Positions 2,349 through 2,747 of a stretch of DNA of 5,787 nucleotides are shown here, one piece after another. How positions within the stretch are numbered: position 1 is the first letter of the stretch; every line of letters starts with the position of its first letter. Location of the stretch: positions 1 through 5,787 of IMG/VR virus record IMGVR_UViG_2623620501_000014; one strand, 5' to 3'. The notes beneath the pieces were generated by a model. That model was given only the letters and a program-made list of their open reading frames with translations, was not told the DNA's origin and ran no database searches. This DNA is from a virus (taxonomy: Duplodnaviria; Heunggongvirae; Uroviricota; Caudoviricetes). A program made the position numbers and the translations under genes.

Positions 2349-2747
2349 TCAGATTCCCTCCCAATCTATATATCCTTTATCTCTTGCCCAACGAACAACT
2401 GTGTGAGCTGTATATGTGGATGTGAAGCCGCAATAAGAACATGACACTTCATACCGGAAATTGTAGATGCTAATGGGGCCGTTCTCCTTACGTATGGGAG
2501 TGACATATTCCCAATCATTTGAATCATCATAATCATCAAGTTCAGGATCAGTGCCGTGAACAACCGTATGTGGAACAAATAAATCTGGGCGTCCACACGA
2601 GAGACAAGAGGTTTTAGCACCTCTATCTGTGAGAAATTGAATAAATAATTTGGGCGTAATTTTCTGCAAGGCCTGCACATGCTCACGTTCCTTATCATTA
2701 AGAGGCCTGCCAAGATATAGAAAATCATCAAATTTAAGAGGCTTCAT
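2349..2747 (-). CDS. Hypothetical Cys4 zinc-ribbon-like protein (132 aa)
   Basis: ATG at 2747-2745 with GGAG 9 nt upstream; TGA at 2351-2349. Two CxxC pairs (CLSCG and CSYCG) about 55 residues apart and an acidic patch (DPELDDYDDSNDWEY). Start overlaps the 3' end of the integrase gene by 14 nt. The ORF-track version begins 5 codons earlier at a TTG. No family recognised. Confidence 0.65.
   Translation of the reverse strand: MKPLKFDDFLYLGRPLNDKEREHVQALQKITPKLFIQFLTDRGAKTSCLSCGRPDLFVPHTVVHGTDPELDDYDDSNDWEYVTPIRKENGPISIYNFRYEVSCSYCGFTSTYTAHTVVRWARDKGYIDWEGI

Follow-up and report, generated by a model that had tools for sequence, protein, structure and literature searches.

The question raised by this locus is whether two small genes located next to the integrase gene of a prophage are expressed together with the phage repressor and the integrase or by signals of their own. 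The window, which is the whole stretch of 5,787 nucleotides that was analyzed, comprises the host genes btuE and btuC and the left, int-proximal end of a P2-family prophage residing between ihfA and btuC; prophage sequence extends from approximately position 1679 rightwards. The minus-strand genes are, in this order, a C-type HTH repressor, int, an ORF of 132 amino acids, and a coiled-coil protein with a C-terminal membrane helix (Table 1). An earlier interpretation, referred to as the sequence-only reading, had assigned all four to a single transcription unit ending in an intrinsic terminator, and had considered translation of the first cargo gene as probably coupled to that of int.

Since the window holds the int-proximal end alone, the assignment to the P2 family (Peduoviridae) is based on a 94%-identical prophage found at the same site in NZ_CP015229. 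It contains the P2-type set of replication endonuclease (gpA), portal, terminase, GPO scaffold, P2-type capsid, tail genes, and ogr, and its far end adjoins ihfA. On the plus strand of the window, an ORF at 5560-5787 is consistent with an early operon; a search against Rfam returned no RNA family anywhere in the window. At the ogr-side (ihfA-side) end of a related prophage (L006, 11504-13214), genes for an alpha/beta hydrolase and a Hok/Gef toxin are present. With these accessory genes beside ogr and a cassette at the int end, cargo is found at both prophage ends.

Table 1. Features of the window, listed from left to right.
Feature	Position	Strand	Remarks
Host btuE	1-552	-	follows btuC; btuE and btuC fill 1-1595
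Host btuC	615..1595	-	E. coli
Promoter-like site near btuC	1656-1628	-
att core	1654..1678	-	25 bp, GGCCGCTCTGCGGCCTTTTTTCTTT; terminator-like hairpin and T-run
attP arm kept in the prophage	1679..1787	-	contains TCCACAAAGTGACCACA (1784-1768)
Partner protein gene (second cargo gene)	1788..2348	-	186 aa if from GTG 2348; SD GGGAGGG 2362-2356
Alternative internal partner start	ATG 2237	-	SD GGAGG 2246-2242; 'DUF1640' form of NCBI
Zinc-ribbon-like protein gene (first cargo gene)	2349..2747	-	132 aa, phrog_4293; two invariant CxxC pairs, C48/C51 and C103/C106
Overlap of int and zinc-ribbon gene	2734..2747	-	14 nt
GGAG Shine-Dalgarno sequence of first cargo gene	2757..2760	-	9 nt before ATG, inside int codons (..P L G E..)
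Tyrosine integrase gene int	2734..3726	-	330 aa; 49 nt downstream of C
C-type repressor gene	3776..4087	-	HTH_3, phrog_147; NZ_CP025903 annotation agrees
Pe-like early promoter	4081..4110	+	TTGACA-18-TATATT, 11/12 matches
Direct repeats	4108..4178		ATTGGTTATCA (4108-4118) and ATAGGTTATCA (4168-4178), 60 nt apart
Candidate Pc	4161..4189	-	TTGCCA-17-CAATCT; PWM scan 7.6 bits, not above shuffles; prediction
Cox-position gene	4183-4461	+	92 aa; first gene of early operon; 95 bp from C

The gene string presumably ends at 1678-1654. At 1678-1664, a stem of six GC pairs closes a loop of three nucleotides (GGCCGC-TCT-GCGGCC) and is followed by TTTTTTCTTT; this combination of a GC-rich hairpin with a T-run is a predicted intrinsic terminator. 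It is the only terminator-like site on the minus strand from the switch region to btuC, so that the nearest downstream terminator had been located correctly in the sequence-only reading. The hairpin is, however, not a feature of the cargo. Its sequence is identical to that of the hairpin behind ihfA of K-12, alignment to the uninterrupted chromosome of that strain starts exactly at the first G of the stem, and the same 25 bp recur at the other prophage end, beside ihfA. From this identity and from the recurrence at both ends it follows that the 25 bp represent the att core. A duplication of 25 nt has been listed for a P2-like prophage of strain SE11 that is likewise situated between btuC and ihfA (PMC2608844). 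The predicted terminator thus is the att core and no cargo-specific signal. Because the whole hairpin is contained in the 25-bp core, attP, attL, and attR all carry it. Judged from this arrangement, ihfA keeps its predicted terminator after integration, and the int-side gene string ends at the same hairpin in the integrated as well as in the circular state. The integration target is the predicted terminator of ihfA, which is the gene for a subunit of IHF. In the literature on P2, this protein is described as an accessory factor for recombination by P2-type Int.

Between the partner gene and the core, the prophage has retained an attP arm. The element TCCACAAAGTGACCACA, which follows directly after the partner stop codon, resembles the repeated TGTCCACA motifs located just after int in Wphi (L036); it is also similar to the repeated GTGTCCACA motifs that come after int in Wphi and in a Klebsiella phage, in L007 just after the partner gene. 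These motifs are likely Int arm-type sites, in which case the cassette would have been inserted precisely between int and the attP arm. NZ_CP025903 (L002), which is 99.9% identical and the closest complete genome, has an IS3-family element at 3303-4516, behind the partner gene and ahead of the att core. This element cuts the gene string off from its predicted terminator; it is absent from the window.

At the opposite end of the gene string, the organization is that of a P2-type lysogenic operon, the defining features of which were taken from PMC1904263 and PMC3936717. C is the first gene and faces a cox-like gene across a short switch with a strong Pe-like site and a weak candidate for Pc, and C is followed immediately by int in the same orientation, the spacer of 49 nt containing no terminator-like site. 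The -35 element of the Pe-like site overlaps the start codon of C. [quoted passage not shown] The two direct repeats of the switch lie at the -10 element of Pe (ATTGGTTATCA) and within the candidate Pc (ATAGGTTATCA). By analogy with the direct repeats that are bound by the C proteins of P2 and Wphi (PMC1904263), they are probably half-sites for the C repressor. The C-int spacer is, at 3735-3775, mostly made up of two copies of CCCCAGCG(T/C)T..A.GA (plus-strand reading), which may serve to regulate the expression of int or may have arisen by chance.

The integrase encoded downstream of C is approximately 48% identical to Int of P2 and Wphi. A longer int ORF, starting from ATG 3876, was rejected; it overlaps C and is used by no annotation. 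On the minus strand, the junction to the cargo reads ...CCTCTTGGAGAAGCCGTATATGAAGCCTCTTAAATTT, with the int frame ending in GAA GCC TCT TAA (stop codon 2736-2734). The start codon of the zinc-ribbon gene (2747-2745) does lie 14 nt inside int, and its GGAG is part of the int coding sequence, both as stated in the sequence-only reading. The NCBI annotation of NZ_CP025903 gives the same ATG and the same overlap. Among the relatives retrieved from IMG/VR, the overlap is kept in 14 of the 14 of E. coli type, while a 3-nt gap replaces it in three of Klebsiella type. Overlaps of start and stop codons are common within bacterial operons; the observation is therefore real, albeit not unusual.

That the overlap might be an annotation artefact, the ORF at 2349-2747 being untranslated or starting further downstream, is scarcely credible, even though the NCBI pipeline leaves an intact homologous ORF unannotated in two genomes. 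Compared with a 90%-identical allele, dN/dS is 0.31 in the frame of the gene, the values for the two alternative frames being 1.5 and 0.8; AlphaFold predicts the fold with confidence (pLDDT 84, pTM 0.77), and the four cysteines of the two CxxC pairs are invariant in 56 homologues. On these grounds the ORF is a real gene, and it is under purifying selection. Its start is equally well defined, since homologues from four genera begin at the same methionine with a conserved Met-Lys-Pro, and the same codon is used in the annotation of NZ_CP025903. TTG 2762 was considered as a start and rejected, because homologues begin at the Met of 2747. An exhaustive profile search yielded 215 clusters of homologues at 50% identity, which in the sample inspected are mostly from Enterobacterales; they are exclusively short stand-alone proteins of 49-180 amino acids, without informative fusions. 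No relative was found in a scan with one genome per species, and the protein has no match in Pfam, NCBIfam, or PADLOC. The two genomes with the intact but unannotated 132-amino acid ORF are L001 (20631-21108) and L003 (2631-3108); annotation-based counts would miss the gene in such cases.

The protein encoded by the second cargo gene has a variable N-terminus, which a Gly-rich linker joins to a coiled coil, and it ends in a transmembrane helix, as a tail-anchored protein would. For the start of the gene, two codons have to be considered. GTG 2348 abuts the stop codon of the zinc-ribbon gene (TGA then GTG) and is preceded by GGGAGGG at a distance of 7 nt. The frame upstream of ATG 2237 is open up to this GTG, and it is equally open in all other lineages examined, including an allele with an in-frame deletion of 18 nt and unrelated alleles; the long form is also the annotated one in SPN3UB and in K. 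aerogenes. The frame being open in every lineage and a Shine-Dalgarno sequence being in place, the gene most likely starts at GTG 2348. This corrects the likely start of the gene annotated as 'DUF1640', GTG 2348 having been absent from the sequence-only reading. A methionine directly after the Gly/Asp-rich linker is nonetheless found in 10 of 11 lineages (the loci compared include the window, 2235-2348, and L007, L008, L009, L027, L028, L030, L032, and L035), with the GGN codons of the linker giving rise to a GGAGG that resembles a Shine-Dalgarno sequence. The conserved post-linker Met may, as far as the sequence comparison goes, be a second start, so that the partner gene would have two. Membership in DUF1640 / CCDC90-like proteins (PF07798) is not supported by the score, which is 28.2 bits compared with a gathering cut-off of 33.5. 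In PADLOC, the partner has weak coiled-coil matches only (ZorA, LmuB; E at best 1e-4), and no known anti-phage defence model of PADLOC-DB 2.0 is matched by the cassette.

Comparison of E. coli prophages at this att site reveals how the two genes relate to int. While Int is 99-100% identical among them, identity is 26-85% for the zinc-ribbon protein and 32-86% for the partner, and dS amounts to 0.24 for the cargo versus 0.036 for int. In DNA alignments of the alleles, homology ends right after GGAG, which is the last stretch conserved between different cassettes, and resumes at or just before the partner stop codon, in the attP arm. As a consequence, the last few Int residues vary with the allele (..NPLGEAVYEAS, ..NPLGGM, and ..NPLEN), and the 14-nt overlap is a by-product of the joining point of this particular cassette. 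Beside the near-invariant int, the site is taken up by no fewer than four divergent alleles of the cassette and by one unrelated gene. In all variants, the distance from the int stop codon to the first start codon falls within -14 to +10 nt: -14 nt in the window type (14/14 loci), +2 nt in AR_0119, +10 nt in ETEC1748, +10 nt for the unrelated single gene of O111, and +3 nt in the Klebsiella relatives.

Beyond this locus, homologues of the zinc-ribbon gene are always followed by a small partner of the same plan, the two genes either abutting (stop then GTG) or overlapping by 4 or 8 nt. A 186-like prophage of Pectobacterium has the pair between repressor and int: the gene for a cI-like repressor is followed by two other genes, the zinc-ribbon gene, the partner gene, and, after a gap of 3 nt, int. 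A terminator-like hairpin with a T-run is located there in the last partner codons, just before int (L032, 4234-4253); it might attenuate the expression of int, or its presence might be due to chance (4 sites found, 3.6 expected). Based on these comparisons, the cassette is a conserved, exchangeable gene pair.

With both ends of the gene string described, the question of a single transcription unit can be addressed. The four genes share a strand, the distances between them being 49, -14, and 0 nt, and the search for terminator-like sites on the minus strand found none between any of them or elsewhere before 1678. Gene order, spacings, and terminator search accordingly fit the unit of C, int, zinc-ribbon gene, coiled-coil gene, and terminator as it had been proposed; what has to be revised is the notion of a terminator belonging to the cargo. 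The lysogenic operon of P2 consists of C and int and is driven by Pc, a promoter that Cox represses (PMC3936717, PMC1904263). From the arrangement found in the window, it is likely that the cargo is co-transcribed with C and int from Pc.

A position weight matrix scan of the minus strand from 4200 to 1680 detected no sigma-70-like site above chance, the best site scoring 8.6 bits in comparison to a mean top score of 10.6 bits in shuffled sequences. The scan bears on the alternative that a promoter in the 3' end of int drives the cassette mainly or solely and is regulated independently of Pc, which we regard as rather unlikely. A weak promoter-like sequence is in fact present at 2795-2767 (ATTACT-17-TTTAAT, 7.8 bits), and the presumed true Pc is not detectably stronger; with the candidate Pc itself at background level, the scan is a weak means of excluding an equally weak promoter in this region. 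In addition, the homologous pair occurs without int, behind an upstream spacer of 135-195 nt, in the lambdoid phage SPN3UB, in a Serratia prophage, and in a Providencia prophage, from which it can be concluded that it is expressible from another promoter. The site at 2795-2767, however, scores below shuffled sequence, its hexamers coincide with conserved Int codons (DYL...FN), and a transcript originating from it would begin approximately at GGAG and have almost no leader. There are also only about 13 nt of cassette-specific DNA before the ATG, and at this locus all alleles abut int. Concerning transcription from Pc, it should be considered that Int of P2 is reportedly poorly translated; if this applied here too, Rho-dependent polarity could lower read-through into the cargo.

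Of the translational coupling suggested in the sequence-only reading, the geometric part holds, int and the zinc-ribbon gene overlapping by 14 nt and the latter abutting the partner gene. Dependence of downstream initiation on upstream translation would be expected if the Shine-Dalgarno sequence and AUG were locked in an RNA structure; the RNA of the junction folds no more strongly than shuffled sequence does (z = +0.99), so GGAG and AUG can recruit ribosomes independently. Coupling from int to the cargo is possible in view of a terminating ribosome being only 11 nt away from the AUG. Ribosomes would probably reach the first cargo gene mainly through its accessible GGAG, and reinitiation following termination on int may contribute in addition.

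Summarizing the proposed mechanism, a P2-family prophage integrated at the ihfA hairpin would carry an exchangeable cassette as the distal part of its Pc operon; taken as a whole, we hold this explanation to be probable. The cassette appears to have no room for signals of its own, given that the ribosome-binding site would be provided by the last conserved int codons, the ATG is inside int, and the partner gene begins at the zinc-ribbon stop codon, which makes it most likely the distal portion of a lysogenic operon C-int-zinc-ribbon-partner. Transcription of this operon would take place in the lysogen, as long as C holds Pe off, and would be silenced by the Cox-like protein during lytic growth; the transcript would be ended by the att-core hairpin and T-run. 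The locus would then be one at which exchangeable genes are appended to int without any added signals, the terminator being contributed by the att core. If the cassette rides on Pc, its products would be present in every lysogen as long as immunity holds, and such expression is what is expected for prophage genes that protect or stabilize the lysogen.

Position and hypervariability of the cassette point to an exclusion, defence, or addiction function expressed in the lysogen. This assignment is derived from the presumed lysogen-expressed unit, from the hypervariability beside an invariant int, and from the occurrence of the pair in accessory regions of other temperate phages. A more specific, tentative proposal is that the zinc-ribbon protein and its tail-anchored partner constitute a fast-diversifying exclusion, abortive infection, or addiction module that is kept on via the repressor-integrase transcript. 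The partner might in that case exist in two forms (from GTG 2348 and Met 2237), comparable to the dual start of holin and antiholin, and its allele-specific N-terminus would pair with the allele-specific zinc-ribbon protein. Our literature search found no functional or transcript data on the cassette proteins, DUF1640 in prophages, SPN3UB, or P2-like lysogens.

It is very improbable that the pair is not cargo and belongs to the phage machinery instead, either as an accessory factor of integration and excision or as a holin-like late function in lysis. The pair does adjoin int and attP, and the membrane-protein homologue of SPN3UB weakly matches PHROGs of holins and of XhlA-hemolysin, with E values of about 1e-6 to 1e-5. 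P2 and Wphi-type phages, however, have no gene between int and attP, the same slot is filled by an unrelated single gene in O111, and in lambdoid phages the pair is also found far from int. In a related prophage, the late region already includes a cassette for holin and endolysin, and the partner protein of the window has no match to holin families. The practical value of the finding is modest; it provides a small uncharacterized gene-pair family whose members are candidates for phage-defence or exclusion assays.

Accessory genes that are expressed in the lysogen from the repressor transcript, and stay on while immunity lasts, are known from cI-rexA-rexB of phage lambda. The window resembles this system in that accessory genes would be appended to the repressor transcript. 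The proteins are unrelated, though, and in lambda the cargo follows directly after the repressor, int being part of another operon. The homologous pair itself is found in the Salmonella phage SPN3UB (gp24-gp25, overlapping by 8 nt) and its relatives (phrog_4293 with phrog_6324), in the same layout and with the zinc-ribbon gene first. SPN3UB differs in being a lambdoid siphovirus, in which the pair, preceded by its own spacer and without int, belongs to an accessory region close to ant and the tape-measure gene. With regard to the partner protein, DUF1640 / CCDC90-like proteins (PF07798) and XhlA/holin-like proteins share the coiled coil followed by a single C-terminal transmembrane helix; the partner remains below the Pfam cut-off for the former, and for the latter the weak holin/hemolysin PHROG matches are confined to the SPN3UB homologue.

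A minor hotspot for cargo and defence genes between int and att of P2-like prophages has recently been reported (NAR 2026, PMC13586616). The locus agrees with it in the int-to-att position and in carrying variable accessory genes there in otherwise near-identical prophages. The two differ in that recognizable defence systems were counted in that study (3% of those in P2), which describes neither this cassette nor a linkage to the C-int operon. The closest counterpart is the C-int operon of P2 and Wphi. Common to both are a C-type HTH repressor as the first gene, int as the next gene on the same strand, a switch of approximately 100 bp facing a cox-like gene with face-to-face promoters, and the degree of Int identity given above. 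Differences concern the integration site, the immunity type, and the region after int, which is followed by attP alone in P2 and Wphi and by two added genes before the attP arm in the window. Thus, the arrangement is an ordinary one and already described in kind, namely, a C-int operon of the P2/Wphi type to which two genes have been appended.
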